Assembly: GCA_013331805.1 (NCBI GenBank)
Contig: DUFS01000027.1
Location: forward strand, 26,555 to 59,522
Direction of reading: 5' to 3'
DNA from: Candidatus Micrarchaeota archaeon
GTDB lineage: Archaea; Micrarchaeota; Micrarchaeia; Anstonellales; Anstonellaceae
Length of the DNA: 32,968 nt
Both the position numbers and the translations under genes were made by a program. The notes below the pieces were generated by a model that was given only the letters and a program-made list of their open reading frames with translations, made no database searches and was not told the DNA's origin. This document shows, piece after piece, positions 1 through 28,813 of this stretch. The number at the start of each line of letters is the position of its first letter. Position 1 is the stretch's first letter.

Positions 1-240
1 GTCAGGCAGTCAATGAAGGAAAGGGAGGGGCATGAAGAACCTCCTTTTGAGCCTGCGCAGGAAGAAAGGGTGCCTGCACGAACAAAAGCAAAGAAGGAAG
101 AAGAGGGGGAAGAGCCTGAAGGGCAGGGAGAGGAAATGCCTGGAAAGGAGCCTAAAGCCAAAAGCAAGCCATCCAAGAAAGTCCTGCCCAAGCCTCCTGC
201 CAAAAAAAGCGCGCCGAAAGCAAAGAAAAAGAAGAAGTAG
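1..240 (+). CDS. 3' end of a CDS entering from the left edge (or a 75-aa ORF from ATG 13): Lys/Glu/Pro-rich low-complexity tail, function unknown
   Basis: Frame 1 is open from base 1 to TAG 238-240. Translation: ...EERVPARTKAKKEEEGEEPEGQGEEMPGKEPKAKSKPSKKVLPKPPAKKSAPKAKKKKK. No domain is recognisable and composition is biased, so coding status is only moderately supported. It converges on the next gene with a 1-nt gap. Confidence 0.35.
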   Translation, partial: VRQSMKEREGHEEPPFEPAQEERVPARTKAKKEEEGEEPEGQGEEMPGKEPKAKSKPSKKVLPKPPAKKSAPKAKKKKK

Positions 241-241: not shown

Positions 242-1849
242 CTATTTCTGCATCCCGACATTGTAGATATCTTTCTCAAGGTTCCTACGTTGCCCAAGCT
301 GTTTCAAAATCTTCCTGTGCACCAGCCCTTTTACTTGCAGGTACTTCTCCCTTCCCAACTCGGCGTTCCCAATAGCATAACGCAGGTTCTTCACATTGAA
401 GCAGAACATAGATTCGTGCACGTTCTCGCAGTTGTGGCAGAACATCGAGTCAGTGCAATCCCTGCAGGTGTCCATCTCAAAGCACCGCTTGAGTTTGACC
501 GAATGGTAGCAGTGGATGCAGAACTCTGAGTCAAACATTGCGTTGCAGCCGTAAACGTGCTCGCAGCTTCGAGGCCAGAACGAATAGGCGCAGTGCTTGG
601 AATAGACAACGGGTGAGGAACGATAACTGTTTGCAGACTGGGTCGGAGTAGGGCATTCGATAATGTTGGTGTTGGTGCCCTCTTCATATTCCGTGGAAAA
701 GAACGCAAGCTTGCCAATGGCTCTTCCGACTGCCTCCATTGTCAATCCTTCTGCCTCTTTATCAGAAATCCTTGCGGACTCCCCAAACGCAAGCGCCTCA
801 GCCTGGGTAAGCAGCCTGTTTTTGGGAAGAAGGAAGTAGTTGCAGTAGTCCCAGCGCCTCACTGTCTTTCCGCTTGCTGCTGATAGGTGCTGCTCGCTTT
901 TCCTGACACGTCTGCTGAGCCATTCCGAATAATCGTCAATCCTGCCTGGCAGCCTTTTCCCGAACAGGATTTCGCAGGTCTTGGCAAATTCCCCCTCAAT
1001 TGGCATCATGTTTCCTTCCTTCTTCGTTTCCTTTGGCATGTTAGGCAGCAATGGCTTAGCCAAAGGCACGCCTCCAACAATGTCAATCAGCGAGGGCGCC
1101 TCCTTTTTTTGCTCAAGCTCGCTTGCCAATTGGAACACGAGCGAATCCTTAATCCTCCTGTACTTCTCAGGCTCAAGCTCCAGGTTGCCAATTGAATTCC
1201 TCCTGTTTTTCAGGCTGAAGCAGAACATGCAGTCGCTGCAGCTGGAAAGATTGTGCGAGTAGTAGCAGTCCGAGGAGTTCTGGCCCATCCAGAATTCAAA
1301 GCAGCGTTTTTCCTTGAATGTCTCATAGCTTTTTATGCAGAACTGGGACTCTCCTATGCCATTGCATCCAAAGCAGCTGTCGCACAGCCTCCCAAGCGTG
1401 GAGAATGCGAGGTATTTGCAGTCCCCGAACTTTCCGGTCTCGTGCATGAAGAAGCTGTCGGATATATTAGAGCTTTTTTCCACTTCCCCAGAATTCCCAA
1501 GAATGACGCTTCCTGCGTAGTAAATCCTCTCTCGCACGGCTTGCGCGATTGAATCAATGTCCTTTATCTCATTCAAATTAAGCGGCGGATAACTTTTCCC
1601 AAAATCAATTTCGTCAAAGCCTATCCATTTAGAGCCTTCCCCATAAGCCGAAATGGCATACGCCACATCCTTGCCAGTAACGCTTGACTTCCGGTGAATA
1701 ATGGGCTCGTTGTTATGCGTGAGCCATTTTGCATACTCTCCGATATCGCCAAGCTCGCGCTTGAAAAGGACCTTGCAGGCCGCGTCCCAGCGCCTTTGGA
1801 TGGTTTGCATGCAGGTTGTACCCATGTTCTTGCCGCCCATATTTGGCAT
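242..1849 (-). CDS. Cys-rich two-module repeat protein, paralog 1 of 3 (family not recognised)
   Basis: 535-codon ORF that aligns by eye over its full length to ORFs 2173-3747 and 3748-5316. Both halves end in the same cap motif (SDCMFCFSLKNRRNSIGNLELEPEKY and ESMFCFNVKNLRYAIGNAELGREKY). No signal peptide or TM segment. The true start is probably internal (ATG 1840, 1825 or 1810), because the paralogs have only 6-12 residues before the conserved W..C..LF head. A TATA-like TTATAATT lies at 1858-1865. Confidence 0.85.
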   Translation of the reverse strand: MPNMGGKNMGTTCMQTIQRRWDAACKVLFKRELGDIGEYAKWLTHNNEPIIHRKSSVTGKDVAYAISAYGEGSKWIGFDEIDFGKSYPPLNLNEIKDIDSIAQAVRERIYYAGSVILGNSGEVEKSSNISDSFFMHETGKFGDCKYLAFSTLGRLCDSCFGCNGIGESQFCIKSYETFKEKRCFEFWMGQNSSDCYYSHNLSSCSDCMFCFSLKNRRNSIGNLELEPEKYRRIKDSLVFQLASELEQKKEAPSLIDIVGGVPLAKPLLPNMPKETKKEGNMMPIEGEFAKTCEILFGKRLPGRIDDYSEWLSRRVRKSEQHLSAASGKTVRRWDYCNYFLLPKNRLLTQAEALAFGESARISDKEAEGLTMEAVGRAIGKLAFFSTEYEEGTNTNIIECPTPTQSANSYRSSPVVYSKHCAYSFWPRSCEHVYGCNAMFDSEFCIHCYHSVKLKRCFEMDTCRDCTDSMFCHNCENVHESMFCFNVKNLRYAIGNAELGREKYLQVKGLVHRKILKQLGQRRNLEKDIYNVGMQK

Positions 1850-1904
1850 GGCTTGGGTTATAATTCTAATTTGGACATATGCCCTATCCTTGAGTCGCCC
1901 CTGC

Positions 1905-2148
1905 TCAGAATCTCTTCTTCAGGTAGTCCTTGAGCACAAACGGAAGGAGCTTGGACTCGGCTCTCCGCAGCCTCTCCTGTATGCTTCTCCTGCTTACCTT
2001 GGCAGCCCTGGCAAGCTTTTCCAGCGTTGCTCCTCGCGGCCAGGAATAGTACCTGCTCAAGCGTCACCCCCGGGAACTTCTCGGACGAAAGGCTGGTCTG
2101 GCAGTCATGGTGGAAAACGCCAATGGTTGCGGACTTCACTTTTTTCAT
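1905..2148 (-). pseudogene. Internally deleted and frameshifted relic of an archaeal HTH_10 (Bat-type, COG3413-like) DNA-binding protein
   Basis: The frame from ATG 2148 gives MKKVKSATIGVFHHDCQTSLSSEKFPGVTLEQ, which resembles the N-terminus of this family (K..I.H.gCw.S..s..FP.v). The +1 frame from about 2060 to TGA 1905-1907 gives (L)SRYYSWPRGATLEKLARAAKVSRRSIQERLRRAESKLLPFVLKDYLKKRF, the classic GYYewPR...LA..lgvS..t..e.LRrAE.KLl helix-turn-helix. The ~130 residues that normally separate the two parts are absent and the parts are in different frames. The track ORF 1858-2148 reads through in the wrong frame. Confidence 0.45.
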
Positions 2149-2172
2149 ATGAATTTCACCACTTTGCCGAAT

Positions 2173-3747
2173 TTAAGCCTTCTTGCCCTTGTAGCATCCC
2201 AGATCGCATATGTCAAATCCGAACGTTCCTTGCTTTTCCAGCCGTTGGAGAAGTTCCTTGACAACAATTCCCCTGATTCTCATGTATTCTTCCCTTCCCA
2301 GCTCCACATTCCCAATGGCATAGCTTTTGTTTTTTGTATTGAAGCAGAACATAGAGTCAGAAAGCCCTTCGCAATTATGGCAGAACATGCTCCGATAACA
2401 GTTCTTGCAGCAGTCCATGTCCATGCATTGGCTGACCTTGACGCAGTCATGGCAGCGGAGGGAGTAAGAGGAATCCATCATCAGCACGCTGGAGCCGAAA
2501 ACCGAGTCGCAGTTCTGCACGTGAGTGGTGTAGCCGCATTTTTTTGAATAGGTTGCATCCCCCACCCTGAAGCAGTCGCTTGAGTAGTATTTCATCGGAG
2601 TTTCAGGTATGTTGCTGTTGCCTCCAGTGTCATAGTCCACATTGTAGAAAGCGATCTGGCCCAATTTTGATATAATCCCTTCGACGCTCGCATTTTCCAA
2701 GCCGCCAATGGCTATGTGGCGCCTGGCAGTCTCAAACGCCTCCTCCCGGGTCGCCATTCTTCCCCTGGGGACGTATTTGCACCAGAAATAATTGCAATAA
2801 TGCGATTCGCTTCCAAAAGCAGTCTTGATTTCCCTCACAGGCTCGCTTCGCTCGGACAGGAATTTTTCATACCTACCCATGGGCGATAGCTCCTTCCCGA
2901 AGATGAGCCTGGTGGCCGACCTGAACGCGCCCTCCGCGATGCCTTTTTCCCCATCTCCCTTATTGCCTTTAGGAACCGATATCCCGGCCAGTTCAGCCCC
3001 CTTCGGGATGCCAAAATCGAACAGCGAATGGAATTTCTTGTGCTTGACCAGGTATTCGCGGCTTTCCTCAAGCAGCTTTTCCTTTATGGCAAGGTATTTT
3101 TCCTTGGGCAATTCCAGGTTGCCAATGCAATATTTCCTGTTCTGGAGGTTGAAGGAAAACATAGCCTGAGCGCAGCCTGTGCAATCGAAGCAGAAGAACA
3201 TGTCCGAGCAATTCACATTCAATGAGCATTCAAAGCACCTTGCAATGTCCGCGCCCCCAGTGATCCTGATGAGATGGTTCCCACGAATCAAAGTATTGCT
3301 CCCAAACACATTCGAACTATCCATGCGGACAAAAGACGAATATGCAACGTATTTTGAAGAAACGACAGTGTGCGAGTTTTTGACATAAAAGCTGTCAGAG
3401 CAATTGTCTGCGTTTTCCACGAATTTCGAGTTCCCGAAAATCTTGTTCCCTGCATAAAGGAATCTGTCAGACAGGGCGGAGATTATGGAGTCGAGGTCCT
3501 TGACTTCGTTGATCCCCAGGGCGAGGTATTTTTTCCCATAGTCAACCTCGTCCTCTGAAACGAAACCAGCCCCATCGCAGTACCTGTCCGAGCCAACAAT
3601 GACGCCCTTTCCTGAAACTGCCGACCTTTTTTCCTTGTAGGGCATGTAGTGGCGCTCGTTAAGGTAGGCGGCATATCCGTCAAGCTCCCCGATTTCACCG
3701 CCAAAAATGACCCTACAGGTCTTTTTCCACGCATCGTTAAGGTCCAT
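2173..3747 (-). CDS. Cys-rich two-module repeat protein, paralog 2 of 3 (family not recognised)
   Basis: 524-codon ORF. ATG 3747 directly abuts the TAA (3748-3750) of the upstream paralog. Head MDLNDAWKKTCRVIFGGEIG, linker GINEVKDLDSI, caps AQAMFSFNLQNRKYCIGNLELPKEKY and SDSMFCFNTKNKSYAIGNVELGREEY. No TM segment or signal peptide. Confidence 0.88.
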   Translation of the reverse strand: MDLNDAWKKTCRVIFGGEIGELDGYAAYLNERHYMPYKEKRSAVSGKGVIVGSDRYCDGAGFVSEDEVDYGKKYLALGINEVKDLDSIISALSDRFLYAGNKIFGNSKFVENADNCSDSFYVKNSHTVVSSKYVAYSSFVRMDSSNVFGSNTLIRGNHLIRITGGADIARCFECSLNVNCSDMFFCFDCTGCAQAMFSFNLQNRKYCIGNLELPKEKYLAIKEKLLEESREYLVKHKKFHSLFDFGIPKGAELAGISVPKGNKGDGEKGIAEGAFRSATRLIFGKELSPMGRYEKFLSERSEPVREIKTAFGSESHYCNYFWCKYVPRGRMATREEAFETARRHIAIGGLENASVEGIISKLGQIAFYNVDYDTGGNSNIPETPMKYYSSDCFRVGDATYSKKCGYTTHVQNCDSVFGSSVLMMDSSYSLRCHDCVKVSQCMDMDCCKNCYRSMFCHNCEGLSDSMFCFNTKNKSYAIGNVELGREEYMRIRGIVVKELLQRLEKQGTFGFDICDLGCYKGKKA

Positions 3748-5316
3748 TTATTTCATCGCCCCGATGTTGTATATGTCCCATTTCAGGCTTTTGGTCTTGT
3801 CGATCTCGTCTGCTATCTGCCCCACAAGGATGCCCTTTGTCTTTGCGTAAGTTTCCTTGTCCAACGGCGTATTCCCAATGTGATGCCTTCTCCCCTTCAT
3901 GTTGAAGCAGAACATGCAGTCCTGCAAGGCCTCGGAATTGTGGCAGAAGTAGGAGTCCGAGCACTTAAGGCAGCCGTCCAGCTCAAAGCAGCGGTTCAGG
4001 TAAAGCGAGTTGTAGCTCTTGAGTGAGAATTGGGACTCAATCACGCGGTTGCAGCCATAAACGTATTTTGAATGGAGCGAAATCGAGGTCATGGCGGTGT
4101 TTTCCGAATAGGTCGCCTCAAATCCCTTGTATATGTTCACGCTGGAAAGAACGATAGGATTTTGCATTACATTGCGATTCTCCCCAGCCCAAAACTCTGA
4201 TGTAAAATAGGCTATTTTGTCCAATCCCTTTTGGATGGAGCTTACTGACCCAATTTCCCTTTCATCTAATGCCAATTTACCCAGCTCAAGTGCATCAAAA
4301 ACCCTGACTGTTCTTTTCCTTGGCATTTCAGATATCATTCCGAAGTTAAGGGGGATGCACGTAGTTGTTCCGAACGCAGTCTTCACTTCCTCCACTCTGA
4401 TGGTGTTTTCGCCAAGCCATCCCTCGAGCTCCGATATGCGTCTTGGCTGCTTTCGGAAAAGTATGGAATAGGTGGAGGCAAATCCCCTTTCAACCGGTTC
4501 CACATCGCTTCCAACTTCTGGGGTCTGCGGATTTATTTTCGGAAGTGTGCTGGAAAGCCCTTTCGGGCAAAGCTCATACAGCGATGGATAGCGCCCGTTT
4601 TTTTCAAGTTCCTCGGCGATTTCTGCCAGCAGCTTTGCCTTAAGATCTCTGAATTTTTCCTTTGGAAGCCGGAGGTTTCCTATCAGATGGCTCTGGTTTT
4701 TCTGCCCGAATGAGAAAAGCAAATCATGGCATCCTACGCAATTGAAGCTGAAGTATATGTCAGATGAATCTCCTAGAAAATGCGATTCAAAGCAGCGATG
4801 GAGGTTTATCCCTGCCACCACGCGCGCGAGATGTTCGCCGTTTGCAGTATAGCCGGACCCGAAGACATGCTTGCTTCCTCTCCTTATCATGAAAGAAGAG
4901 TGGATATGCGAAGACTGCTCTATATTAGTTGAATTATATACGAATTGGGAATCCAGGATTATGTCGGACTTTTCAACGTGGGCGGAGTTGCCTAGATAGC
5001 GGTTGCCGGAATATTCTAGTTTTTCCCTAAGAGCTGCGACGAGCGAGTCAATGTCCTTAATTTCATTAATATTCAGCCCGTATTCCCTGTTAGTCGTGAG
5101 CTCGTCCTCGGAAATGAACCTTGCCCCTTGCGGATAAGCGTCCCTTGCCACGATGACTTCCTTTCCGCTGGCATGGGACCTGCGCTTCGCCACTGGAAGA
5201 AGATACTCTGACAAATAATCCTCGTACTTGCCTAGTCCTCCAAGCTCGCGCCCGAACAGCGCCCTGCATGTGCCTGCCCAGCTTTTCTCCAATGCCCTTT
5301 CAAGCTCAGGATCCAT
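3748..5316 (-). CDS. Cys-rich two-module repeat protein, paralog 3 of 3 (family not recognised; N-module largely Cys-depleted)
   Basis: 522-codon ORF. ATG 5316 lies 2 nt after the TAA (5319-5321) of the PLD gene. Head WAGTCRALFGRELG, linker LNINEIKDIDSL, caps HDLLFSFGQKNQSHLIGNLRLPKEKF and QDCMFCFNMKGRRHHIGNTPLDKETY. Confidence 0.88.
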   Translation of the reverse strand: MDPELERALEKSWAGTCRALFGRELGGLGKYEDYLSEYLLPVAKRRSHASGKEVIVARDAYPQGARFISEDELTTNREYGLNINEIKDIDSLVAALREKLEYSGNRYLGNSAHVEKSDIILDSQFVYNSTNIEQSSHIHSSFMIRRGSKHVFGSGYTANGEHLARVVAGINLHRCFESHFLGDSSDIYFSFNCVGCHDLLFSFGQKNQSHLIGNLRLPKEKFRDLKAKLLAEIAEELEKNGRYPSLYELCPKGLSSTLPKINPQTPEVGSDVEPVERGFASTYSILFRKQPRRISELEGWLGENTIRVEEVKTAFGTTTCIPLNFGMISEMPRKRTVRVFDALELGKLALDEREIGSVSSIQKGLDKIAYFTSEFWAGENRNVMQNPIVLSSVNIYKGFEATYSENTAMTSISLHSKYVYGCNRVIESQFSLKSYNSLYLNRCFELDGCLKCSDSYFCHNSEALQDCMFCFNMKGRRHHIGNTPLDKETYAKTKGILVGQIADEIDKTKSLKWDIYNIGAMK

Positions 5317-5318
5317 GC

Positions 5319-5891
5319 TTACCCTTCCGTTCCCTTTTCCCAGTCCTCTTCGAATATGGCAACAAGCTCTTTTACCCCTTCTCCTTCCACCAAAACAGCA
5401 GCTTCCCTGTTCTTGTTCAGTGCGCTTTCAGAAAGGTTGATGCTTCCGATCAGCGCTTTTTTGCCGTCCACAATGATGAACTTGCTGTGCGTCAGCTTGT
5501 AGGAAAGCGAAGCCCATTTCATATCAACCCCGAGCTCGGAAAGCAGCGCATACACCCTGGTTTTGCGGCTGTCGTCCACGCGGGGCTCCATTATCACGCG
5601 CACCTCCACTCCCCTTGACTCCGCCTCCCCAAGCTCCCGGATCACTTCCTCTGAGCTGAAGGTATAAATTTCAATGTCAATGGTGCTATTGGCAGTCCGG
5701 ATGAAATCGATCACATCGCCCTCGGCATCCGGGGAAAAAATGAAGTCCACTTTTGCATTGCACCCTGCACAGGCAGGCTGGGGCAGGAATGCGATGAATA
5801 TTAACATGGCACCGACTGAAAGAAGGAGAAAAAGTATGATAACTGTTTTAGTATCCAACGCCGCTCCCATACTCATCAATCCGCTCCACAT
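5319..5891 (-). CDS. Membrane-anchored or secreted single-HKD phospholipase D superfamily protein, Nuc-like endonuclease
   Basis: 190-codon ORF with an N-terminal hydrophobic anchor (TVIILFLLLSVGAMLIFIAFL). One exact HKD signature, HSKFIIVDGKKALIGSIN (HxKx4Dx6GSxN), and a size typical of Nuc-type nucleases. All candidate ATGs (5891, 5876, 5870) overlap the 3' end of carB (stop 5848-5850). Confidence 0.8.
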   Translation of the reverse strand: MWSGLMSMGAALDTKTVIILFLLLSVGAMLIFIAFLPQPACAGCNAKVDFIFSPDAEGDVIDFIRTANSTIDIEIYTFSSEEVIRELGEAESRGVEVRVIMEPRVDDSRKTRVYALLSELGVDMKWASLSYKLTHSKFIIVDGKKALIGSINLSESALNKNREAAVLVEGEGVKELVAIFEEDWEKGTEG

Positions 5892-8800
5892 GCAGTTTTT
5901 TCCCGAAAGAATGCCTCATTGCCCCCACCAATGCCTCCGCTGCCTCGAAATTGGTCAGGCAGGGTATTCCATTCTCCAAGCAGGCCCGGCGGATCCGAAA
6001 GCCGTCTGTATTGGCGACCTTGCCTTTTTTGGGGGTATTGAAAACCAGATGAATGCTGCCTTTCTTGATTTCCGAAAGTATGTTCGGTTCTCCTTCTGAT
6101 ATTTTCTTGAGCAACTTTACCTTGCCTCCGATTTGGGCGGCAGTCGTGGGCGTTGCATACACGGAAAATCCCATTTCAAAAAGCGCCTCTGCAAGCGGCT
6201 TGGCGCGCTCCTTGTCGCCGTCCTTGAGGCTGATTGCCACCCCCCCAGACCGTGGAATCTTCAGGTTCGCCCCCAAAAGCGCCTTCATGAAAGCCAGCGG
6301 GAAATCGTAATCAGCCCCCATGCTCTCCCCGGTGCTTTTCATCTCCGGCCCAAGCACAGTGTCCGCGCCTGGCAGCTTAAGGAAAGGGAACACCACTCCC
6401 TTGACGGCATAATGGGACATGTGCGGCATTTCGGTTGCCCCAAGTTCCTCCAGTGTCTTTCCCATTATTACTTTGGTGGCAATTTTCACAAGAGGAACGC
6501 CGGTTGCCTTGGAAAGGAAAGGCATGGTCCTGCTTGCGCGCGGATTTGCCTCAAGCACGTATAGCACGTCATTTTGGACAACGTACTGGATGTTTATCGA
6601 ACCCTTGGTCTTGAGAGCAAGCGCTATCCTTTCGGAAACCTCCAGTATCTTTTCCTGAACCTCCTTTTTCAGGCGCACGCAGGGCACCACGTTGTTCGCA
6701 TCCCCGGAGTGCACTCCTGCGCGCTCCACATGCTCCATTATACCGCCGACAAAGAGCCTCTTTCCGTCAGCCACCCCGTCTATCTCGCACTCGATCGCTT
6801 TTTCGATGTACTTGTCAACGAGCACGGGCTTCCTTTCCGAAACCTCCACTGCCTCGCCAATGTATTTCCGCAGGCTCTCCTCATCATAGACGATCTGCAT
6901 TCCCCTGCCTGCAATCACGTAGCTCGGGCGCACAACAATAGGGTAACCGATCCTTGTGGCATGCTCCACCGCCTCCTGCTCGTTTGTCGCAGTCGCATTG
7001 TCCGGCTGGCGGATTCCAAGCTCGTGCAGCAGCGCCTTGAATTTCTCCCTGTCCTCGGCAATGTCAATGCCCTCCATCTGCGTGCCCAGTATTTTCACAC
7101 CGCTCATCTCCAGCCTTTGCGCAAGGTTGATCGAGGTCTGCCCGCCGAACTGGACAATCACCCCTTCGGGCTTTTCGTGCTCGATTACGTTCATCACGTC
7201 CTCAAAAGTAAGGGGCTCGAAGTAAAGCCTGTCTGATGTGTCAAAATCAGTGCTCACTGTCTCCGGGTTGTTGTTTATCATTATGGACTCGATTCCTATC
7301 TCCCTAAGTGCAAAGGCAGCGTGGCAGCAGCAGTAGTCGAATTCAATGCCCTGCCCGATCCTGATCGGCCCGCTTCCGATTATCACAACCTTGCGCCTTC
7401 GGGTTGGCTTGCTTTCATTCTCGTTTTCATAAGTGGAATAGTAATACGGGGTCAATGCCTCAAACTCGGCAGCGCAGGTATCCACCATCTTGTAAACCGG
7501 CACAATGCCGGCCTTTTTCCTCATATCGCGCACCATGGATGTCTCATGCCCGATTATGGAGGCAATCTGCTCGTCAGAATAGCCCACCCTTTTGGCCTCG
7601 TAAAGCAGCTTCCTTCCGAACACTTCCCTCTTGAGCCGGTTTTCCATGTTCGCATACGCATCCAGCCGGTCCAGGAACCACAAGTGGATTTCAGTGAGCT
7701 TGTTTATCTTTTCCTTTTCCCACCCCAGCCTCAGCGCTTCCAGAATTGCGTAAATCCGAAGGTCGGTTGGCGCCGCCAGATGGTGCTCGATATCCTTTGG
7801 CTGGATTTTCACCTTTTTCATTTCAACCGAGCGAAGCGCCTTGCCAAAAGCCTCCTCAAAAGTCCTTCCGATTGCCATTGTTTCCCCTGTTGACTTCATC
7901 TGCGTGCCGATCACCCGGTTGCTTTCAGGTATCTTGTCGAAGGGCCACCTGGGGATTTTCACCACGCAGTAGTCCAAAGAGGGCTCAAAAGCCGCAGGAG
8001 TGGTCTTGGTGACCGCGTTTTTTATCTCGTGCAAGCCCAGCCCGAGCGCGATTTTTGCAGCCACCCTTGCAATCGGATAGCCGGTTGCCTTGGAAGCCAG
8101 CGCCGAGGAGCGGGAAAGGCGGGGGTTCACTTCCACCACAACGTACTCGCCGGTTTTCTGGTTGAGCGCGAACTGTATGTTGCAGCCCCCTTCGATTTTC
8201 AAAGCGCGGATTATCTTTATTGCGGCGCTGCGAAGCATCTGGTGCTCGTCATCGCTCAGGGTTTGCGAAGGCGCAACCACCACGGATTCCCCGGTGTGAA
8301 CGCCCATTGGATCGATATTCTCCATGTTGCAGATGGTGATGCAGTTGTCATACGAGTCCCGCATCATCTCGTATTCGAATTCCCCCCATCCCAGCACAGA
8401 CTGCTCCACAAGCACCTGGTGGGTTGGCGAAAGCGCGAAGCCAAGCTCAAGAAGCTTGTCAAAATCTTCTTTGCCCCTGGCTATTCCTCCGCCTGTGCCT
8501 CCCAATGTGAACGCAGGGCGCAATATCAGGGGAAAGGGATGCGTCGCAGCAAACTCCCATGCCTCCCCGGCAGAATTGGCGGCTACGCTTTCAGGTATCG
8601 GCTCCCCTATTTTCTGCATGAGCGATTTGAACTTGCCCCTGTCCTCTGCCATTTCAATTGACTCGATTCCTGTGCCGAGCATTTTCAGATTGTATTTTTT
8701 CAGGATGCCTTTCTTGTGCAGCTCCACGGCGAGGTTCAGGCCCGTCTGGCCTCCCATTGTGGCGATAAGCCCCTGGGGCTTTTCCTTCTCGATTATCCTT

Positions 8801-9030
8801 TCCAGGAAGTCTGCGCGCAGGGGTTCGATGTATACAATGTCAGCAATCTCCTTGTCGGTCTGTATTGTGGCGGGGTTGGAATTGACCACCACAACTTTCA
8901 CGCCCTCTGCCCTAAGCGAGGCGCATGCCTGCGAGCCCGAGTAGTCAAACTCCGCAGACTGCCCGATTACTATGGGGCCGCTCCCTATTACCAGCACCTT
9001 TTCTATGTTTTTTCCCACCAGCTTCACCAA
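5848..9030 (-). CDS. carB: Carbamoyl-phosphate synthase large subunit
   Basis: 1060-codon ORF with two ATP-grasp halves opening with [20 protein letters not shown] and [20 protein letters not shown], and a C-terminal MGS-like region. The track start is TTG 9030. GTG 9018 ([14 protein letters not shown]) preceded by GGTGA looks like the better start. Confidence 0.95.
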   Translation of the reverse strand: [1060 protein letters not shown]

Positions 9031-11210: not shown

Positions 11211-11624
11211 CTATTCTCCTTTCCGTATCCTTTCAAAGTGGTTGGAGACCGAATCCAGATGGTACCTTCCATAGTCCTGTATTGTGTAAATCACGTAGAA
11301 GCCAACACCAATGCCAATAAGCATCAGGGGAATGGTGAAAAGCTTTCCGTAATAGCTTTGCGGCACCAAGTCGCCGTATCCGACGGTGGTTATCGTGGAA
11401 GTGGTGAAGTAAACCGAATCCTCCCAGGTCCAGCCTTCAACGAAATGGAAGACCAGTGTCGCGACCAGGTAAACCCCTGCAAGCAGGAGCCCTGCGTACA
11501 TGATTCTCTTTTTCATGCGCGCCTTTTCCCGGTCGATCTCCTGCTTGTAATGCGCTTCAAAGTCAACTGCCTGGTGGATTACCTCTGAGTTCTTTTTGTC
11601 GATTGAATAGCTTCTTTTGGCCAC
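11211..11624 (-). CDS. Minimal two-TM potassium channel (KcsA-like pore only)
   Basis: 137 codons. Two hydrophobic helices flank a pore helix and the selectivity filter TTVGYGD. No RCK or ligand-binding domain. The GTG start overlaps the stop of the upstream gene (TAGTG). Confidence 0.8.
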   Translation of the reverse strand: MAKRSYSIDKKNSEVIHQAVDFEAHYKQEIDREKARMKKRIMYAGLLLAGVYLVATLVFHFVEGWTWEDSVYFTTSTITTVGYGDLVPQSYYGKLFTIPLMLIGIGVGFYVIYTIQDYGRYHLDSVSNHFERIRKGE

Positions 11625-13462
11625 TACTTCACCTTGGAGTTGTTATCCAGTGCCATTTCATAGGCCTTGTAATAGTTTTCCACCAATTTGTCCCAGTTCA
11701 GGTGCGACATCATGCCATAGGCGCTTGCCTTTTCCTTTTCAAGCTCCTTGGCAGGCAGTTTGTAAACCCTCTCAAGCTCGCGCGAAAGCTCTTCTGATGC
11801 CTGCTGCGAGCTTTTGCCTGCCATGCGTATTACCTTCACGCCGCAGCCCTTTTTGTCCGCTTTTTTCATAATGAACCTTCCGAATCCGGTCATGTCCGAT
11901 GTAATTGCAATGTCCCTTTTCACCGCAGCCTCGACCGGGGTGTAGCCAAACGGCTCGTAGCGCGACGGGAACACTCCAACGTCCATTGCCGCGATCACAT
12001 CATAATAATTGAGGTTCATCAGGCCGTCGTTGGGTTTCATGTAAGTCGGGTAGAAAATAACCTTCACAGGATTGGATTTTTCGTTGTTCAGCCCGGCGGA
12101 TACGCAGGCGTTAATAATGGAATCGTTCTGGTAGGAGATGTCGTAGCAGTTGATGTGGGGCCGCTCGCCGTCCTTGATAAAGCCCTTTGCCATATTTCCA
12201 ACGTCCAGCTTAATCTCGCCTTGCAAGAGGGACATCGCGGCCTGGAGGTTCACATAAGGCTTGCCCTTGGTCTCAGGAATCTCCTTCAGTATTTCATTTA
12301 TCTTGTCCAGGAGAAGGTAGTTCTTTATGACCGAGATTTTCGGGCCCTTTACAGAGCTTGGCGCGAAGATGAAGGCAAAGACCTTCCTTTCATTGCCATC
12401 CTTGCTCTTTTTCAGCCGGCTGTTCAGTTTGGCAAGCGCATCAATGAATATGTCAAATCCCTTGTTGGTGAACTCATACCTTCCGGATATGTAAACGAAA
12501 AGCGCGTTGTCGTATCTCATCTCATAATAGCTGGTGAAGCACGCCTCCACGAACTGCTGGAGCTCTCCCCTGGCATAGGCTGAAAGGTCGTGTGTTTCCT
12601 CATCGCCCTTGCCGTTCCCAAATTCGATGCCATTGACCGTGATCACATCCGCCTTCCTTCCCAGGATGTATTCAACTTCCTGAGCAACCGTTTCGCTCAC
12701 TGTTGTGAATACTATGCATTCCTTTGCGGCTGCCACCTCGAGCTGGTGCTTGCCTTCGCACCTGTTGTTGTAAGCCACGTTGAGGGAAATCGGTACTTTA
12801 GCCTTCTCAGCCTCGTTATAAACGTCCACTCCGGCAGAAGCCAGCGTCCTTCCCAGCACGGTTGCATGGGTTGTGAACACGGTTGCCAGCCCCAGCCCCT
12901 TTATCTTGCAGTGGAGTATTGCCGCGCCAGCTATCCACTCGTGGAATTGCAGCACTGTGCTTTCCTTGGCAAAAAGCCCCTTGGAAAAAAGCCTTTCAAG
13001 AAGCATGCCCACCCCCAGGCACCAAACTATGTTTTCAGTGAAGTCCCAGGACTTTTCCATTATGGAATCGATCCCAAAGTGCTTCCAGAGCAGGAACTTG
13101 AAATAGTTCGACTGCTTGTCCTTTTGCATGCCCTGGCCATTTGCATATTCCACAATCCGCTCGCCGGCTGCCTTGGCGTCCACTGAAATGATCCTTGAGT
13201 TGTCGCCATACGTCCAGGTGCCGTACCTGCAGTGCACGCCCTCGCGCTCCAGCTCTTCGAAAATGTCCCGCAGCTTGCCCGTAGGCTCCTCGAATTTGAT
13301 GTCCTCCCCGCACTTGTCGTCCAGGAAGCCTATCAAAAGGTAGTTGTTGCCGAACTTCTTGTGCAGGTACTCTGCCTTGCTCCGAATCACGGTGTATATC
13401 CCGCCAATCTTCCTTCCTGCCTCTGAGGAGATTTCAATGAGCGCCTTGGGTTCGGCTGCCAT
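11624..13462 (-). CDS. Glycogen (alpha-glucan) synthase, glycosyltransferase family 3 (eukaryote/Bacteroides type)
   Basis: N-terminus EISSEAGRKIGGIYTVIRSKA matches the GT3 glycogen-synthase opening (..E..NKVGGIYTV..tKA). The length is about 610 aa. Start set at ATG 13462 (MAAEPKALIE) because TTTATAAA at 13484-13491 is centred 26 nt upstream, which fits a leaderless layout. The ORF stays open to ATG 13525. Confidence 0.8.
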   Translation of the reverse strand: MAAEPKALIEISSEAGRKIGGIYTVIRSKAEYLHKKFGNNYLLIGFLDDKCGEDIKFEEPTGKLRDIFEELEREGVHCRYGTWTYGDNSRIISVDAKAAGERIVEYANGQGMQKDKQSNYFKFLLWKHFGIDSIMEKSWDFTENIVWCLGVGMLLERLFSKGLFAKESTVLQFHEWIAGAAILHCKIKGLGLATVFTTHATVLGRTLASAGVDVYNEAEKAKVPISLNVAYNNRCEGKHQLEVAAAKECIVFTTVSETVAQEVEYILGRKADVITVNGIEFGNGKGDEETHDLSAYARGELQQFVEACFTSYYEMRYDNALFVYISGRYEFTNKGFDIFIDALAKLNSRLKKSKDGNERKVFAFIFAPSSVKGPKISVIKNYLLLDKINEILKEIPETKGKPYVNLQAAMSLLQGEIKLDVGNMAKGFIKDGERPHINCYDISYQNDSIINACVSAGLNNEKSNPVKVIFYPTYMKPNDGLMNLNYYDVIAAMDVGVFPSRYEPFGYTPVEAAVKRDIAITSDMTGFGRFIMKKADKKGCGVKVIRMAGKSSQQASEELSRELERVYKLPAKELEKEKASAYGMMSHLNWDKLVENYYKAYEMALDNNSKVK

Positions 13463-13558
13463 GGCTAGGGAACGGTTCTGAGGTTTATAAAACATCCGCT
13501 GATGTTTTATTGAGGTCGAATGCATTTCGACCGTTTATAAAATCTTGCCCAAAGTAGG

Positions 13559-14578
13559 CTAGGCTATCTTCGTATCAATTACAACCTGCACAGTGGTTTT
13601 CGAATAGGGGCGCACAATGCGCCTGAAAAGCAAATGCGCATGCCTGCCTCTGTCCAGCGCGGCGTCCATCACTTGCATTTCAGCCTCAGCAAATGGCTCA
13701 ACTGCGCTTCCGAATGCATAATAGTGGAGAACTCCGCCTTTTTTCAGGCAAGGGAGAACATTTTTCAGGAAATGTATGCCGTCCTTGGGCAGGGGCATTG
13801 CAATCCGGTCAAATTTCCCTTGCAGTTTTCCCGGCAGGAGCCTGGCAACATCCCCTTTTACTGCTGAAACATTCCTGCACCTGTTCCTCTTGATGTTCGA
13901 TTTGAAGTATTTTGCTGCTGCAGGGTTTAGTTCGATGCCAACTACGTTTGCTTTAGCTTGCATTTTTGCAATCCTAATGGCAAAGGGGCCCGCACCTGCG
14001 AAAGGGACAAGCACCTTCTCGCCAGGCTTCACAAGCGATGCAATCCTTGTCCTCTCGGTTCCCAGCCTTGGAGAAAAGTAAGTCTTGTTCAGGTCCAACT
14101 CGAATTCGCATCCAGCCTCCCTGTAAATAGTGCGTGTGCGCCTTGCGCCTGCAATCACCCTCACAGGCCTTATGCGGAATTCGCCCGAAGTCCCGCCAGT
14201 TTTTTTAGCCACTGTCCTGATATTGCGGTGGTTCTTCATTATTGCCGAAGCGATTAGCCGCTGCTTTTTGGCAAGGGGGGCTGGTATTTCCACTACAGCA
14301 ATGTCACCTATCATGTCGAATGACTTCACCAGTTCGCCAAGCTCGGATGCCGTGAGCTTTCCTGCAAGCTCCTCTTCCAGCGATTTTCCATATTCCTGCC
14401 GCTTTTTGAGCTTCTTTTGTGCAAAATCAAAGCCCGCAGCCCTCTTCTTGACAGCGAAGTAGACAAATTCCTCATCGCGGGCAGGCACATATGATCCGTC
14501 CAGCATGCCCTTATCAAGAAGCCTTCTCCTGACCGCCTCAGCCTTGTGCCGCTCAACTTGTGCGCAAAGGACCAACAA
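13559..14578 (-). CDS. trm5: tRNA (guanine37-N1)-methyltransferase Trm5 family (Met-10+ like class I SAM methyltransferase)
   Basis: 339 codons. SAM-binding loop VLVPFAGAGPFAIRIA, then GIELNPAA and DRIAMPLP. The N-terminal small domain (ERHKAEAVRRRLLDKGMLD) is typical of archaeal Trm5. TTG start (14578 or 14575) just after AGGTG, which overlaps the leuS stop. Confidence 0.75.
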   Translation of the reverse strand: MLVLCAQVERHKAEAVRRRLLDKGMLDGSYVPARDEEFVYFAVKKRAAGFDFAQKKLKKRQEYGKSLEEELAGKLTASELGELVKSFDMIGDIAVVEIPAPLAKKQRLIASAIMKNHRNIRTVAKKTGGTSGEFRIRPVRVIAGARRTRTIYREAGCEFELDLNKTYFSPRLGTERTRIASLVKPGEKVLVPFAGAGPFAIRIAKMQAKANVVGIELNPAAAKYFKSNIKRNRCRNVSAVKGDVARLLPGKLQGKFDRIAMPLPKDGIHFLKNVLPCLKKGGVLHYYAFGSAVEPFAEAEMQVMDAALDRGRHAHLLFRRIVRPYSKTTVQVVIDTKIA

Positions 14579-14584: not shown

Positions 14585-17341
14585 TTACGAAACCAGTATG
14601 CTCGGCTTTCCTGGCAGGGCATTTTTCGCCTTTGGAACGCCGGTTTCCTCTTCCATGCAGAATGCGATTGCAGCGCCAAATTCCCCCTCCAGCAGCTTGA
14701 TTGCGCTTTTGAGCGCTTCCAGCTCGAATACGGCTGGCTGGGTCTGCCCAAGAGAGCCGGCATTCTTCATGTAGCTTGCCAGCACCTTGGCAGCGGCTGC
14801 TGCATTCGGCTTGATTTCCGGGTCTGCCATTGCGGTTTTCATTGCTGCGTCGAATTTCCTTTCATCCGAGGCAATCTGCCTAAGCTTCCTTTTCCATTCC
14901 GAAGCGACAAAGAGCTCAATTTTTGATGGCTTTTCAATTTTCAGCAGCTTGAGTATGGATGAAACGTCCTCCCTTACCTTCACTATGTAGCTTTCCGCCT
15001 CTTCCAGCCCCTCGTCCACCTTGCCCTGGTCGCCAGTGGGCATCGGTGCAATGGAAACAAACGCAGCATCCTTCACATAATGCTTGGTTCCCAGCTGCTG
15101 CCACATCTCTTCTGCCGCATGCGGAATGAACGGGGCGATGAGAGGCACCCAAAGCTCGAAGCACTCGCGCAGCTTGGGCTTTGCAGCCCTCTTGAGGTAC
15201 CACTGCAGGTCGTTTACGGTGTTGTAGAAAAGCTCCAGGGAAAGGTCGCGAAGCTGGAAGTTTTGGTACATTTTTTCCGCTGCAAGCGCCCGCTTGTGCA
15301 TGCGGGAAAGAATCCACCTGTCCGCAAGGTCGTGCTTCCCTTCATCCTTCCCAGCCGCGTATTTCAGCATGGCCGCCTGCAGGAATTTCAGGCGCGATAG
15401 CACGCCTTCCACTGCCGGCCTGTTGAAATCCGTATCCTGGGCAAGGTCAGCGCCGGACACCACCACAAAGCGTATGGCGTCTGCCCCGAATTCCCTTATT
15501 GCCGCCCGGATGGGCATTATGTTGCCCATGCTCTTGCTCATCTTCTTGCCGTCCATGAGCACAAATCCGTTGGTGACTATCTGCCTGGGCCAAAGCTCGC
15601 GCGGGAAAATTGCGGCATGGTTGAATATGAAAAACGTCAGGTGGTTGTGCACCAGGTCGGTTGCCGAATGGCGCGAGTCGTGCGGATACCAGTAGGAAAA
15701 GCATTTGCGCATTTCCTTTGCCTCTTTGGGGAGCTTATGTGCGCTCCCCTTGCCAAGGAACACATAGTCAAAAAGCTCCTCGCTCAGCTGATCGGGCTTC
15801 ATCTTCTGCGCAATGTGGGCTATGGTGTAGTAAGCCATGTATATGGTGGAGTCTGAAAGCGCCTCGATCATCTTTGTTTCGTCAAACGGGAACCGTGTCC
15901 CTAGGCCAATTGACCGCGTGCAGGCCTTTTCCCGAAGCCAGCCTATGGTGTATTCGTATTCCTTTAGCGCCTTTTCCGGCAATATTCGCATTCCTGCCAG
16001 GCATTGCCGGGCAAGCGACTTCCATTTTCCGTCCCCGTAGTCGATGAACCACTGGTCCTTGACCAGCTTCACCCCGACCAGCCCCCCGTAGCGGCTGTAA
16101 ATCGGCCCGTTTTGAATATCATAGAGCTGCATTGCGGTTCCTTCAGCAATCATCTTTGCGCGGATCTTCTCCTTTGCTTCCACTCCCTTCATTCCGGAAA
16201 ATTCGCCCTTCACCATGATTCCTGTGTGGGCTTCCTTGCGGTAGATTTCGTCCGTTGCTTCCTCGGCTTTGGGGTCGTTCTGGTCCTTCACGCCCATCTG
16301 CTCCACAATGTCCTTGGCAGGGAATTGCGAAAAGCCCTCGAGCTTCAGCACCTGGATTAGCGGAACCTTTTTGAGCAAGCCTGAATCGCGAAGGGCAAGA
16401 TAGTCGTAAGGCGCATGCGCAGGAACCGACATCACCACTCCCGTGCCTGCCTTGGGATCAACAAACTCTGCCGGCAAAAGGGGCAATAGCTCGCCCGTGA
16501 GCGGATTTTTCGCAGCCTTCTCCATCAATTCGCCTGCTGTGAATTCCTTTTCCACTATAAGCGGCAGCTGCATGGAAAGGGGGCCGACCGCATCCTTTGC
16601 AACATAGTATTTCCGCTTGCCGTCGCTTGCGCGAACGTATCTAGCGTTGGGATTCAGCCAGATGTTGGTGACGCCGTAAATAGTTTCAGGCCTGTAGGTC
16701 TCGCAGGCAAGGAACCCTTCCTCAAACTGGAAGAGAACTGCGGTAACCTCCTCAATCTGCGGGTCAACGTCCCCTTTCGTGTCATGTGCGCCTACTGCTG
16801 CCTGGGAAATCGGGCACCAGGGAACAGGGTGCTCGCCCTTTTTTATGAATCCTCTTTCCTTGAGCTTGGCAAACTGCCAATGGATGAACCTGTTGAACTG
16901 GGGGTCAAAGGAAAAGAATTTCCTTCGCCAGTCAATGGAGTAGCCCATTTCCCGCATTCCCTCCTCTATTTCTCGGGAAAAGTAGGCAACCAGTTCCTTT
17001 GGGTCTGTGAGCGTATCGGTCACGGCAGGGGAAATGCCGTAAACCTTTTCGAAAATTCCGAATATTTCCTTGTCTCGCTCGGCAATGCGCCTTGCCATTG
17101 CAAGAATCGGCGTTCCGGTCACATGAAAAGCCATTGGGAAAAGCACGTTCCTGCCCTTCATCCTCATGTAACGGGCATAAATGTCTGTTGTTGTGTAGGT
17201 CCTGCCGTGCCCGATGTGCTGCGGCGAGTTCGGGTAGGGGAAGGCAGGGGTCAGGAAGAATTTGCCATCACAGCCCTCCAATGGCTGGAAAAGGCGCTTG
17301 TCCTCCCAGGCCTTCTGCCATTTTGCGTCGGAATTCTGCAT
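14585..17341 (-). CDS. leuS: Leucyl-tRNA synthetase, archaeal type
   Basis: From ATG 17341 (MQNSDAKWQKAWEDKRLF) the product is 918 aa, with HIGH motif PQHIGHGRTY and KMSKS motif KKMSKSMGN. The track ORF continues 353 codons further upstream (to 18400), but only as a stop-free antisense run through the histidine-kinase gene. Confidence 0.93.
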   Translation of the reverse strand: MQNSDAKWQKAWEDKRLFQPLEGCDGKFFLTPAFPYPNSPQHIGHGRTYTTTDIYARYMRMKGRNVLFPMAFHVTGTPILAMARRIAERDKEIFGIFEKVYGISPAVTDTLTDPKELVAYFSREIEEGMREMGYSIDWRRKFFSFDPQFNRFIHWQFAKLKERGFIKKGEHPVPWCPISQAAVGAHDTKGDVDPQIEEVTAVLFQFEEGFLACETYRPETIYGVTNIWLNPNARYVRASDGKRKYYVAKDAVGPLSMQLPLIVEKEFTAGELMEKAAKNPLTGELLPLLPAEFVDPKAGTGVVMSVPAHAPYDYLALRDSGLLKKVPLIQVLKLEGFSQFPAKDIVEQMGVKDQNDPKAEEATDEIYRKEAHTGIMVKGEFSGMKGVEAKEKIRAKMIAEGTAMQLYDIQNGPIYSRYGGLVGVKLVKDQWFIDYGDGKWKSLARQCLAGMRILPEKALKEYEYTIGWLREKACTRSIGLGTRFPFDETKMIEALSDSTIYMAYYTIAHIAQKMKPDQLSEELFDYVFLGKGSAHKLPKEAKEMRKCFSYWYPHDSRHSATDLVHNHLTFFIFNHAAIFPRELWPRQIVTNGFVLMDGKKMSKSMGNIMPIRAAIREFGADAIRFVVVSGADLAQDTDFNRPAVEGVLSRLKFLQAAMLKYAAGKDEGKHDLADRWILSRMHKRALAAEKMYQNFQLRDLSLELFYNTVNDLQWYLKRAAKPKLRECFELWVPLIAPFIPHAAEEMWQQLGTKHYVKDAAFVSIAPMPTGDQGKVDEGLEEAESYIVKVREDVSSILKLLKIEKPSKIELFVASEWKRKLRQIASDERKFDAAMKTAMADPEIKPNAAAAAKVLASYMKNAGSLGQTQPAVFELEALKSAIKLLEGEFGAAIAFCMEEETGVPKAKNALPGKPSILVS

Positions 17342-28801: not shown

Positions 28802-28813
28802 GGGGTGTTATTG

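Follow-up and report, generated by a model that had tools for sequence, protein, structure and literature searches.

What do three tandem paralogs of a cysteine-rich protein do in a micrarchaeal genome, and with which neighbour do they work? The question arises from a stretch of 32,968 nucleotides from Candidatus Micrarchaeota archaeon (hereafter the window), in which the genes P1, P2 and P3 follow carB and a gene for a PLD protein on the minus strand (Table 1). A preliminary description had linked the paralogs to this PLD. The ORF list returned the minus-strand frames of P1, P2, P3, PLD and carB as given there, and reading of the sequence bore out the tight junctions: the PLD stop TAA is followed by GC and the P3 ATG, leaving a 2-nt spacer, the P2 ATG directly abuts the P3 TAA, and the 3′ end of carB is overlapped by the PLD start. 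Translation of P1 may in fact begin at an internal Met, some 8 codons further on. The locus is surrounded by housekeeping genes, with no defence island, and is syntenic with the loci L068 and L133 and with the P0003 contig; on an identical public contig of 4.5 kb, L082, PLD is called with a 185-aa start. The window contains a reduced, three-gene version of a Micrarchaeota array locus whose ATPase gene probably lies just off the left edge, and P1 forms the end of the array, convergent with that gene.

Table 1. Features at the left end of the window (positions within the window).
Feature	Position	Strand	Basis and remarks
Probable ATPase C-terminal tail	1..240	+	Open frame, composition, position, synteny
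P1	242..1849	−	ORF call, 535 aa; solenoid-family HMM covers positions 3–522
HTH_10 pseudogene	1914..2163	−	tblastn against intact L068 and L004 HTH_10 proteins
P2	2173..3747	−	ORF call, 524 aa; AlphaFold2 model
P3	3748..5316	−	ORF call, 522 aa; first gene of the array; Cys-poorer paralog
PLD	5319..5891	−	190 aa; alternative ATGs 5876, 5870; PF13091
carB	5848..9030	−	Housekeeping context gene; anchors PLD in the window's lineage

P1, P2 and P3 are paralogous from end to end, as had been claimed (34–37% identity, E 1e-105 to 1e-112). The N half of every one of them also aligns with its C half (24–28% identity, E 1e-17 to 1e-27), and each reads as an internal duplication of a module of about 260 aa, far above chance. 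Neither a TM segment nor a signal peptide was found in P1–P3, in line with the preliminary description, and the proteins were read as cytoplasmic; they contain 26, 26 and 13 cysteines, respectively. The family, which we refer to as the solenoid family, had been called unrecognised and is so: no match was obtained in Pfam, NCBIfam, PADLOC, the PDB (by sequence or fold) or BFVD. Profile scans assigned P1–P3 to no Pfam, NCBIfam or PADLOC family at E ≤ 1, no Pfam match was consistent among 63 members at E ≤ 5, and searches of PDB sequences with single-sequence and profile queries gave only sub-threshold matches to Cys knuckles. The single, weak match in PHROGs (phrog_15341, function unknown; 5.5e-6 over 58 residues) had no backing from tblastn against phages (E 0.3). 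A viral or mobile origin was rejected in view of the housekeeping context and the lack of relatives on IMG/VR contigs, plasmids or phages, and a DNA-mimic reading was rejected at a median pI of 7.2.

Similar repeats had been ascribed to unannotated proteins of uncultivated prokaryotes, and the family does stem from uncultivated archaea (Micrarchaeota, DPANN). At E ≤ 1e-3 its cluster representatives number 1,912, with 1,185 weak profile matches lying between E 1e-3 and 1e-10. All named matches among 572 are from Micrarchaeota, as are all 76 loci kept from 399 confirmed genome matches; among the matches listed, the named members of the family thus appear restricted to this phylum. The family appears undescribed: in the Micrarchaeota literature searched, including the Anstonella and Bilamarchaeum genome papers, neither it nor its neighbourhood is mentioned.

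An AlphaFold2 model of full-length P2 (pLDDT 85.6, pTM 0.85) predicts that the module consists of a small α/β domain, a narrow β-solenoid of 12-residue coils and a long helix, and each protein of the family combines two such modules, diverged from each other, into a pseudo-dimer. The solenoid of the N-module reached a pLDDT of 57–72 when modelled alone vs. 76–93 in the full-length model. With Foldseek E ≤ 1e-3 or TM > 0.5 taken as the mark of a known fold, none was found in the PDB or BFVD: the full-length model gave a best E of 0.34 (TM ≤ 0.17) against the PDB and 0.8 against BFVD, and the N-module model 3.8 against the PDB. The only, faint, matches were left-handed β-helix proteins (E ≥ 0.3, TM 0.08–0.17). 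Members of this class, such as γ-carbonic anhydrases and acyltransferases, share the hexapeptide periodicity and a C-terminal helix after the solenoid, but their coils span 18 residues built on the [LIV]-G-x4 hexapeptide, whereas the hydrophobic super-period of the present family is 12 (autocorrelation of 0.48 at lag 12 vs. 0.13 at lag 18; Cys/Ser autocorrelation of 0.60 at lag 6). With this super-period and no Hexapep match at E ≤ 5 in any of the 63 members, a canonical left-handed β-helix was rejected. The antifreeze protein of Tenebrio molitor is a β-helix of 12-residue coils (TCTxSxxCxxAx). It resembles the family in the number of residues per coil and in the inward-facing small Cys, Ser or Ala at every third position, but sequence or Foldseek similarity to this type of β-helix was not detectable, and the family is cytoplasmic and archaeal, with the solenoid flanked by an α/β domain and a long helix. 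Disulfides are not required in the family because Cys and Ser interchange freely. If the model holds, structural biology would gain a new β-solenoid architecture.

The cysteines are arranged as period-3/6 Cys/Ser ladders in the solenoid coils. Interchange of Cys and Ser is frequent, cysteines covary at lags of 12, 24 and 36, and sets of them have been lost and gained jointly. Most of them are probably residues of the solenoid core rather than obvious metal ligands. A group in the C-module, namely C429, C432, C441, C450, C456, C459, C468 and H457, is 74–99% conserved and forms CxxC knuckles, and Ser often substitutes for Cys at neighbouring ladder positions. Invariant polar residues are D84, R170, E173, D182, N210, H457, E460, N470 and K472. 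We infer that the patch C456-H457-N458-C459-E460...C468-F-N470-x-K472 is the likeliest candidate for a functional or metal site. Chains with ZZ fingers matched the family at E 0.87–2.2 only, and Fer4 at E ≥ 0.45.

Homologs had been expected to occur in multiples, and they habitually do, in tightly coupled operons. Arrays contain up to 10 genes with junctions of 4-nt overlaps or 4–5-nt spacers, and family members also occur as adjacent pairs of split genes, an N-half and a C-half, always in that order. The notion of diverged, retained paralogs was likewise supported: the paralogs are ancient and have positional orthologs in other genomes. The best matches of P1 are the genes that end other arrays (L068_3, 57%; L009_10, 56%; L018_8, 46%; L133 positions 12563–14158, 67%), its orthogroup usually being the array member closest to the ATPase, while P3 is most similar to first genes (L009_1, 65%; L070_1, 60%; L063_1, 59%; L068_1, 54%); P2 has orthologs in P0002 (66%), P0003 (63%) and L009_7 (53%). 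The hetero-oligomer that had been suggested is, if fixed, hard to square with these arrays because close relatives have 0, 2, 3, 4 or 5 copies at the window's locus. The family evolves fast, with 54–57% identity between the window and L068 vs. 87.5% for carB (CPSase Pfam domains on the syntenic contig). Many members are solitary, distant from the ATPase and accompanied by their own Lrp/AsnC-type regulator (20 loci). Although the genomes of Micrarchaeota do not exceed about 1 Mb, this 1.6-kb gene is present in some of them in 10 to 15 or more copies, which together take up about 2% of the sequence. Such a large, position-conserved family with no relative found in the databases searched likely underlies a central feature of DPANN cell biology that defines the lineage.

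The PLD gene product belongs to PLDc_2 (PF13091, 93.7 bits vs. a cut-off of 27, 1e-26). It has one HKD motif, H135-S-K137-FIIV-D142 (H135-x-K137-x4-D142), and one N-terminal hydrophobic segment (residues 5–45), upholding the claims of a single-HKD nuclease type and of a membrane anchor; the protein is probably extracytoplasmic. It resembles the Nuc/NucT proteins in its one HKD motif, length of about 190 aa, N-terminal signal or anchor and PLDc_2 domain, but this putative nuclease, known here from sequence, scores below the NCBIfam equivalog cut-offs for NucT (49.2 vs. 211) and DrmC (57.8 vs. 133). With these scores, and with carB and the solenoid-family array as neighbours in place of the DISARM partners DrmA/B and MTase, identity with DISARM DrmC or NucT was rejected. 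P1–P3 and the anchored PLD had been proposed to form a functional unit in nucleic-acid degradation, scavenging or defence, and the 2-nt junction, the common strand, the similarity to DrmC and NucT and the recurrence of PLD beside arrays in L068, L133, L082 and the P0003 contig point in this direction. The distribution, however, largely refutes this reading. Adjacency to an HKD nuclease, the second feature expected of homologs, was found among the 76 family-anchored loci only in the window and L068, and among 64 ATPase-anchored loci PLD occurs in L133 and L137 only; it is missing from over 70 further family loci and some 60 ATPase loci. All PLD-bearing loci come from the lineage of the window, in which PLD additionally abuts carB. 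L137, a contig ending inside the ATPase gene, retains carB–PLD, but its interval from PLD to the ATPase contains no family gene. The likely extracytoplasmic location is also at odds with paralogs that carry neither signal peptide nor TM segment. We consider a common unit highly improbable. PLD is a neighbour particular to this lineage, where it lies between carB and the array but outside the core of the system, and most likely represents a secreted or anchored Nuc-like putative nuclease incidental to the array.

The conserved neighbour of the solenoid family is a soluble, Micrarchaeota-specific P-loop ATPase of the HerA/FtsK/VirD4 class, which was missed in the preliminary description because the window is cut at its left edge. 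Of the ATPase-anchored loci (64 overall), 26 are flanked by 1.5 kb or more on either side, and 25 of these have a family gene within 300 nt. In the opposite direction, 27–31 of the 76 family-anchored loci have the ATPase beside the family gene, at a median distance of 14 nt, and the adjacency occurs in two orientations, convergent and co-directional. All 329 matches of the ATPase are from Micrarchaeota (49–71% identity). Assignment to the HerA/FtsK superfamily is borne out by a DUF87 score above the cut-off and intact Walker motifs: the L004 protein matches PF01935 (DUF87) with 49.4 vs. a cut-off of 23.2 and PF10412 (TrwB_AAD_bind) with 42.8 vs. 20.5, and Walker A (G208-x-S-G-x-G-K214) and Walker B (D432-E433) are invariant in 22 sequences. 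An FtsK_SpoIIIE signature is present as well. About 190 aa of the ATPase form a unique N-domain, and its tail is acidic and Lys-rich; no hydrophobic or TM segment was found in five ATPases examined. Its nearest solved sequence relatives are anti-phage HerA proteins, the match being confined to the P-loop (E 1e-4), and it scores 18.4 against the HerA equivalog of NCBIfam vs. a cut-off of 970. In the window, the plus-strand frame is open from base 1, stops at 238–240, 1 nt from the P1 stop, and encodes a tail that is acidic and then Lys/Ala/Pro-rich; L068, L133 and the P0003 contig carry an 860–894-aa DUF87/TrwB ATPase with a similar tail at the identical syntenic position. Composition, position and synteny indicate that this frame is probably the C-terminal tail of the convergent ATPase. 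Sequence alignment to the ATPase C-terminus was discarded, as it scored no better than shuffled tails. Among the neighbours of the ATPase, only the solenoid family and HTH regulators recur; NurA and Mre11/Rad50, which would mark a HerA-NurA repair module, do not. L149, a distant out-group relative, lies in the context of a conjugative or integrative element that includes a recombinase as well as TraG- and VirB4-like genes.

Our best guess, tentative and drawn by analogy, is that P1–P3 are interchangeable pseudo-dimeric cytoplasmic partners of this ATPase. The ATPase would presumably be hexameric, and the family proteins would serve as exchangeable caps, adaptors or specificity subunits, as NurA, Sir2 or DUF4297 do on HerA. 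Ancient paralogs would supply differing specificities, their number could grow or shrink, the core partner would be the P1-type paralog beside the ATPase, and PLD would stand outside the system. This ATPase-partner reading is supported by the 25/26 adjacency in the reverse test and the confinement of the ATPase to Micrarchaeota, and by the positional orthology of first and last genes, synteny and the translationally coupled arrays. HerA-NurA, Sir2-HerA and DUF4297-HerA likewise consist of a soluble HerA/FtsK-class ATPase encoded beside a non-ATPase partner that is dimeric or pseudo-dimeric. Here, however, the partner is unlike NurA, Sir2 or DUF4297, can be present as anything from 1 to 10 or more paralogs and has no nuclease or NADase domain, and the ATPase is similar at the P-loop only and has its own N-domain and tail. 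The copy number of 0–5 in close relatives counts against a partner role, as do the fast evolution of the family, which also fits conflict or effector roles, and the conserved C-module Cys/His residues, which are compatible with a real metal centre. Solitary genes with their own regulators imply that some paralogs may act independently of the ATPase.

The same data were weighed against other roles. A HerA-based conflict or defence system, with the ATPase as motor and the variable paralogs as diversified sensors or effectors, is suggested by top PDB and NCBIfam matches of the ATPase that include the Sir2-HerA and DUF4297-HerA anti-phage proteins, by a divergence far faster than that of housekeeping neighbours, by the variable array size and by a HicA toxin gene close to one array. 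It appears unlikely, as P1–P3 have no PADLOC match, known HerA is matched at the P-loop only and far under cut-offs, the locus is embedded in housekeeping genes, no recognisable effector domain was found and family members are absent from the viral contigs and plasmids searched. Furthermore, first/last-gene orthology and phylum-wide conservation of the ATPase are unlike patchy mobile defence systems. Independent enzymes or metal/redox proteins (Zn, Fe-S), for which adjacency to the ATPase would be historical and not mechanistic, would fit the Lrp/AsnC regulators at the 20 solitary-copy loci, the HTH_10 and TrmB neighbours (small-molecule-sensing regulators having been proposed as controllers), the numerous invariant polar residues, the conserved CxxC knuckles with their faint likeness to ZZ zinc fingers and the joint gain and loss of Cys sets. 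We regard this as unlikely, too: adjacency in two orientations is hard to call historical, the interchange and covariation of cysteines at i+12, +24 and +36 fit core ladders over ligand sets, no enzyme-family signal was obtained at any threshold in Pfam and PDB profile searches, and ten co-transcribed isozymes would be odd for a genome of about 1 Mb.

Micrarchaeota frequently live as episymbionts, and by analogy the paralogs might be signal-less cargo or effectors translocated by an FtsK/VirD4-like ATPase, e.g. toward a host cell. The TrwB_AAD_bind and FtsK_SpoIIIE signatures, the setting of L149 and substrates that are paired or fused, numerous, fast-evolving and devoid of signal peptides would agree with this. 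EccC of type VII secretion (T7SS) is likewise an FtsK-family ATPase encoded by arrays of signal-less paralogs in adjacent pairs, Esx or PE/PPE there and N-half plus C-half (or fused) genes, which presumably pair, here. However, the ATPase has no TM anchor, conserved membrane components are absent and no membrane-channel gene family recurs near arrays, where the recurrent neighbours are the ATPase and HTH regulators. T7SS substrates are helical hairpins of about 100 aa with no homology to the 520-aa solenoids, whose unfolding and export, rich in buried Cys as they are, would be unlikely. For the Anstonellaceae-like lineage of the window, a broad anabolic capacity and perhaps a reduced host dependence have also been reported (PMC8561730, PMC12892359). 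We therefore judge export very unlikely.

It is a distinctly unlikely but far-reaching idea that the paralogs and the ATPase form an ATP-driven machine or structure inside the cell that occurs in Micrarchaeota alone and defines the phylum. Cryo-ET of ARMAN cells reportedly revealed an unexplained tubular 'organelle', and the paralogs might be building blocks of such a large cytoplasmic assembly or, alternatively, of a new DNA- or protein-handling apparatus for an episymbiotic lifestyle; either way, the protein fold would have no solved relative. For the partner role preferred here, the ATPase and a P1-type paralog offer a concrete testable target in a phylum with few cultivated co-cultures. 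The lead is thereby corrected: the ATPase is the conserved neighbour, and pursuing the putative PLD nuclease would have been a dead end.

HTH_10, tandem Lrp/AsnC or TrmB regulators often occur near solenoid-family loci, the Lrp/AsnC tandems beside the solitary copies being divergently oriented. The HTH relic noted between P1 and P2 is indeed a frameshifted, internally deleted HTH_10 pseudogene. Its N-terminal fragment (positions 2026–2163) matches residues 47–93 (63% identity) of the HTH_10 protein of L068, which is intact at 277 aa, and its C-terminal HTH fragment (positions 1914–2051) matches residues 231–276 (74%) in another frame; the relic is a pseudogene because the frames differ and the approximately 137 intervening residues are missing. 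A 96-aa ORF (1858–2148) gave no Pfam match but is a remnant of this gene (phmmer 2e-09), whose intact L068 orthologue matches PF04967 at 6.9e-13. L068, L133 and L004 all retain an intact HTH_10 gene at the equivalent position of the array.

Gene calls bore out the proposed series of three tandem Cys-rich paralogs behind carB and the PLD gene, together with its tight junctions. Read from the sequence, the ATG of P3 follows the PLD stop codon TAA after the two nucleotides GC, the ATG of P2 stands immediately after the P3 TAA, and the PLD start overlaps the 3′ end of carB. P1, P2 and P3 are paralogous end to end (34–37% identity, E about 1e-105 to 1e-112), as had been described, and contain no hydrophobic segments. 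Each is moreover internally duplicated, its N half matching its C half at 24–28% identity (E 1e-17 to 1e-27), and we refer to these ~260-aa halves as the N- and C-modules. The "HTH relic" noted between P2 and P1 was genuine as well: two HTH_10 fragments were matched at window 1914–2163. Window 2026–2163 corresponds to residues 47–93 (63% identity) and window 1914–2051 to residues 231–276 (74% identity) of an intact 277-aa HTH_10 regulator in the related locus L068; the fragments lie in different frames and the middle of the gene is deleted.

Features of the carB–PLD–P3–P2–P1 region (window coordinates)
Feature	Position	Strand	Type
carB	5848-9030	-	ORF
PLD, 190 aa	5319-5891	-	ORF; PLDc_2
P3, 522 aa	3748-5316	-	ORF
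P2, 524 aa	2173-3747	-	ORF
Short ORF between P2 and P1	1858-2148	-	ORF
P1, 535 aa	242-1849	-	ORF

The family had been called unrecognised, and indeed P1–P3 had no match in Pfam, NCBIfam or PADLOC, while a Pfam scan of all 63 alignment members at E ≤ 5 revealed no recurring family. PDB searches with the single sequence or a profile gave only sub-threshold hits, in which a CxxC-x5-CxxC-x5-CxxC stretch was matched with ZZ zinc fingers. Among 5.8 billion proteins we found 572 relatives, nearly all of ~520 aa and all labelled "hypothetical"; the named ones were all Candidatus Micrarchaeota, Micrarchaeia, Anstonellaceae or Bilamarchaeaceae. An exhaustive profile search yielded 1,912 representatives of 50%-identity clusters (347 at E ≤ 1e-30), and 399 matches were confirmed among the GTDB species genomes. 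From the latter, 76 loci were retained, representing ~44 genomes, all Micrarchaeota-type, several of which carried 3–5 separate loci. No members were found on IMG/VR viral contigs, plasmids or phages. The named relatives and the 76 loci kept thus show the family to be restricted to the phylum Micrarchaeota.

An AlphaFold2 model of P2 (63-sequence alignment; pLDDT 85.6, pTM 0.85) predicted for each module a small alpha/beta domain, a series of very short strands at six-residue intervals and then a long helix. Foldseek retrieved no match for this model in the PDB (best E 0.34, TM ≤ 0.17; the faint hits were left-handed beta-helix and gamma-carbonic-anhydrase structures) or in BFVD, nor for the N-module model alone. 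Since the solenoid of the N-module dropped to a pLDDT of 57–72 when modelled alone, compared with 76–93 in the full-length model, the predictions suggest that the two modules stabilise each other. In an alignment of 136 sequences, Cys columns recurred at strict every-third-residue spacing with many Cys and Ser interchangeable, Cys/Ser frequency showed an autocorrelation of 0.60 at lag 6, hydrophobicity one of 0.48 at lag 12 versus 0.13 at lag 18, and Cys presence covaried at spacings of 12, 24 and 36 residues. These periodicities point to a narrow beta-solenoid in which each coil spans 12 residues and a Cys/Ser ladder forms the core. A canonical 18-residue hexapeptide helix was rejected because the hydrophobicity period lies at lag 12, not lag 18. 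The predicted solenoid resembles the beta-helix of insect TmAFP, but homology between the two was not detectable. In the C-module, a patch of residues (C429, C432, C441, C450, C456, H457, C459, E460, C468, N470, K472) is 74–100% conserved and might have a metal-binding or other functional role. Neither the family nor its neighbourhood is described in any paper retrieved. The P1–P3 family has no sequence relative, no PDB or BFVD fold relative and no assignable function, although the pairing of a HerA-like ATPase with an accessory protein is familiar in general terms.

The multi-copy arrangement recurred in related genomes, whose arrays comprise as many as ten family genes joined by 4-nt overlaps or 4–5-nt spacers (L001). 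Mixed loci contain full-length genes together with adjacent genes for an N-half (~255 aa) and a C-half (~257 aa), always in that order. The best matches of P3 were first genes of other arrays (65, 60, 59 and 54% identity), those of P1 were last genes (57, 56 and 46%), and that of P2 was an internal gene (53%); members within one array share about 35–45% identity. The array paralogs are ancient and position-holding. Beyond the assembly that contains the window, the nearest orthologue of P2 is P0002 (66% identical; contigs L083/L084). It stands alone, flanked by a Methyltransf_28 gene and by an MGMT-like DNA_binding_1 gene, so the same orthogroup can occupy quite different contexts.

Clustering of neighbouring ORFs across all 76 loci revealed only three recurrent close neighbours: a DUF87/TrwB_AAD_bind/FtsK-like ATPase of 560–900 aa (27–31 loci, median distance 14 nt), a 333-aa tandem Lrp/AsnC regulator (20 loci) and HTH_10 regulators (12–16 loci). 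The ATPase is predicted to be soluble, with invariant Walker A and B motifs, and its relatives (329 hits, 49–71% identity) are confined to Micrarchaeota. In the reverse test, the ATPase fetched 64 metagenome loci, 26 of them flanked by 1.5 kb or more on each side; in 25 of these 26 a family gene lay within 300 nt, convergent or co-directional, which shows a near-obligate adjacency. On the 1.37-Mb contig Ga0209514_10000001 (L125 and L135), two ATPase copies ~80 kb apart each adjoin a family gene. Total ATPase length ranges from 560 to 990 aa across lineages; the disordered tails in L068, L069, L070 and L133 (100–350 aa, widely different by lineage) consist of long stretches of acidic residues and, at the end, a Lys/Ala/Pro-rich part that resembles histone H1.

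Overall, these data show a family of two-module, predicted beta-solenoid proteins encoded in translationally coupled arrays and split pairs, often next to transcription factors. We tentatively favour the reading, though at somewhat less than an even chance, that its members are interchangeable pseudo-dimeric partners of the ATPase (caps, adaptors or specificity subunits) with a P1-type paralog as core. As a rival, ATPase and family might form a HerA-based conflict system; the ATPase resembles known HerA, CedD and VirD4 at the P-loop only, far under family cut-offs. The family might also be the cargo of a translocase, and two distant ATPase relatives (24% identity) occur in a conjugative or integrative-element context. 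The region around them, L149 5474–19607, encodes a serine recombinase, a MazF toxin, TraG/VirD4-like and VirB4-like ATPases and a 1,430-aa RHS-repeat protein, a gene content suggestive of an integrative or conjugative element. A further rival sees independent, regulated enzymes or metal proteins. The tandem Lrp/AsnC regulators (two HTH plus ligand-binding units; L021, L022, L039, L043, L044, L045, L072 and others, e.g., L015 17927–18928) are found ~100 nt away from solitary family genes, in most cases in divergent orientation, suggesting that small molecules (amino acids?) may control single paralogs.

Copy number bears on both the ATPase-partner reading and the earlier proposals. On the contig of the P2 ortholog P0003, carA, OTC, carB and PLD are followed by a series of five family genes, interrupted by a 161-aa ORF, and by a convergent 894-aa ATPase; L068, which has two family genes, and L133, which has four, are arranged alike and have an intact HTH_10. 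Judged by this gene order, the window is a three-gene version of the locus, ending just before the ATPase. Window 1–240 (+) is an open frame of acidic and Lys-rich composition with its stop 1 nt from that of P1. As its alignment to ATPase tails was no better than that of shuffled sequence, synteny and composition are the basis for assigning it as the probable ATPase C-terminal tail. Comparison of the window with L068 gave 81–88% identity for carB, OTC and carA and 54–61% for P1, P3 and PLD, indicating that the family evolves fast. Where carB is 83–88% identical, the carB–PLD locus holds 0, 2, 3, 4 or 5 family copies, pointing to rapid array gain and loss. This range among close relatives, together with the many solitary copies that come with regulators of their own, argues against the fixed hetero-oligomer suggested in the preliminary description. 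The PLD-coupled system proposed there was not supported either. The gene is a clear PLDc_2 member (93.7 bits, cut-off 27) with a single HKD motif (residues 135–142), and the described membrane anchor was recovered as one N-terminal hydrophobic segment. It adjoins the family only in the window's lineage (window, L068, L082, L133, P0003 contig), and no other locus anchored on the family or on the ATPase contained it. L137 1–4447 comprises carB (84% identical to the window's), PLD and a convergent ATPase (80% identical to that of L068) with no family gene between, so loss of the array leaves PLD beside carB. Most simply, PLD is a predicted Nuc-like nuclease, which its N-terminal anchor or signal would place outside the cytoplasm.

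The remaining window genes (carA, OTC, glycogen synthase, Trm5, LeuRS, MFS, LonB, DnaK, HMA protein, Cu-ATPase) represent ordinary chromosome; no tRNA genes were found across the window. The LeuRS ORF (14585–18400, −; 1,271 aa) has its class-I synthetase domain from about residue 360, reflecting either an over-called start or an N-terminal extension of ~350 aa. Beside the arginine/pyrimidine genes, a eukaryote/archaeal-type glycogen synthase (11624–13525, −; PF05693, 1.4e-94) is a sign of storage-polysaccharide metabolism in a DPANN archaeon with a small genome. The genes for a 310-aa protein with an HMA domain and, after it, a 720-aa P1B ATPase of the copper type lie at 27869–31681 (+) and look like a metal-efflux pair.
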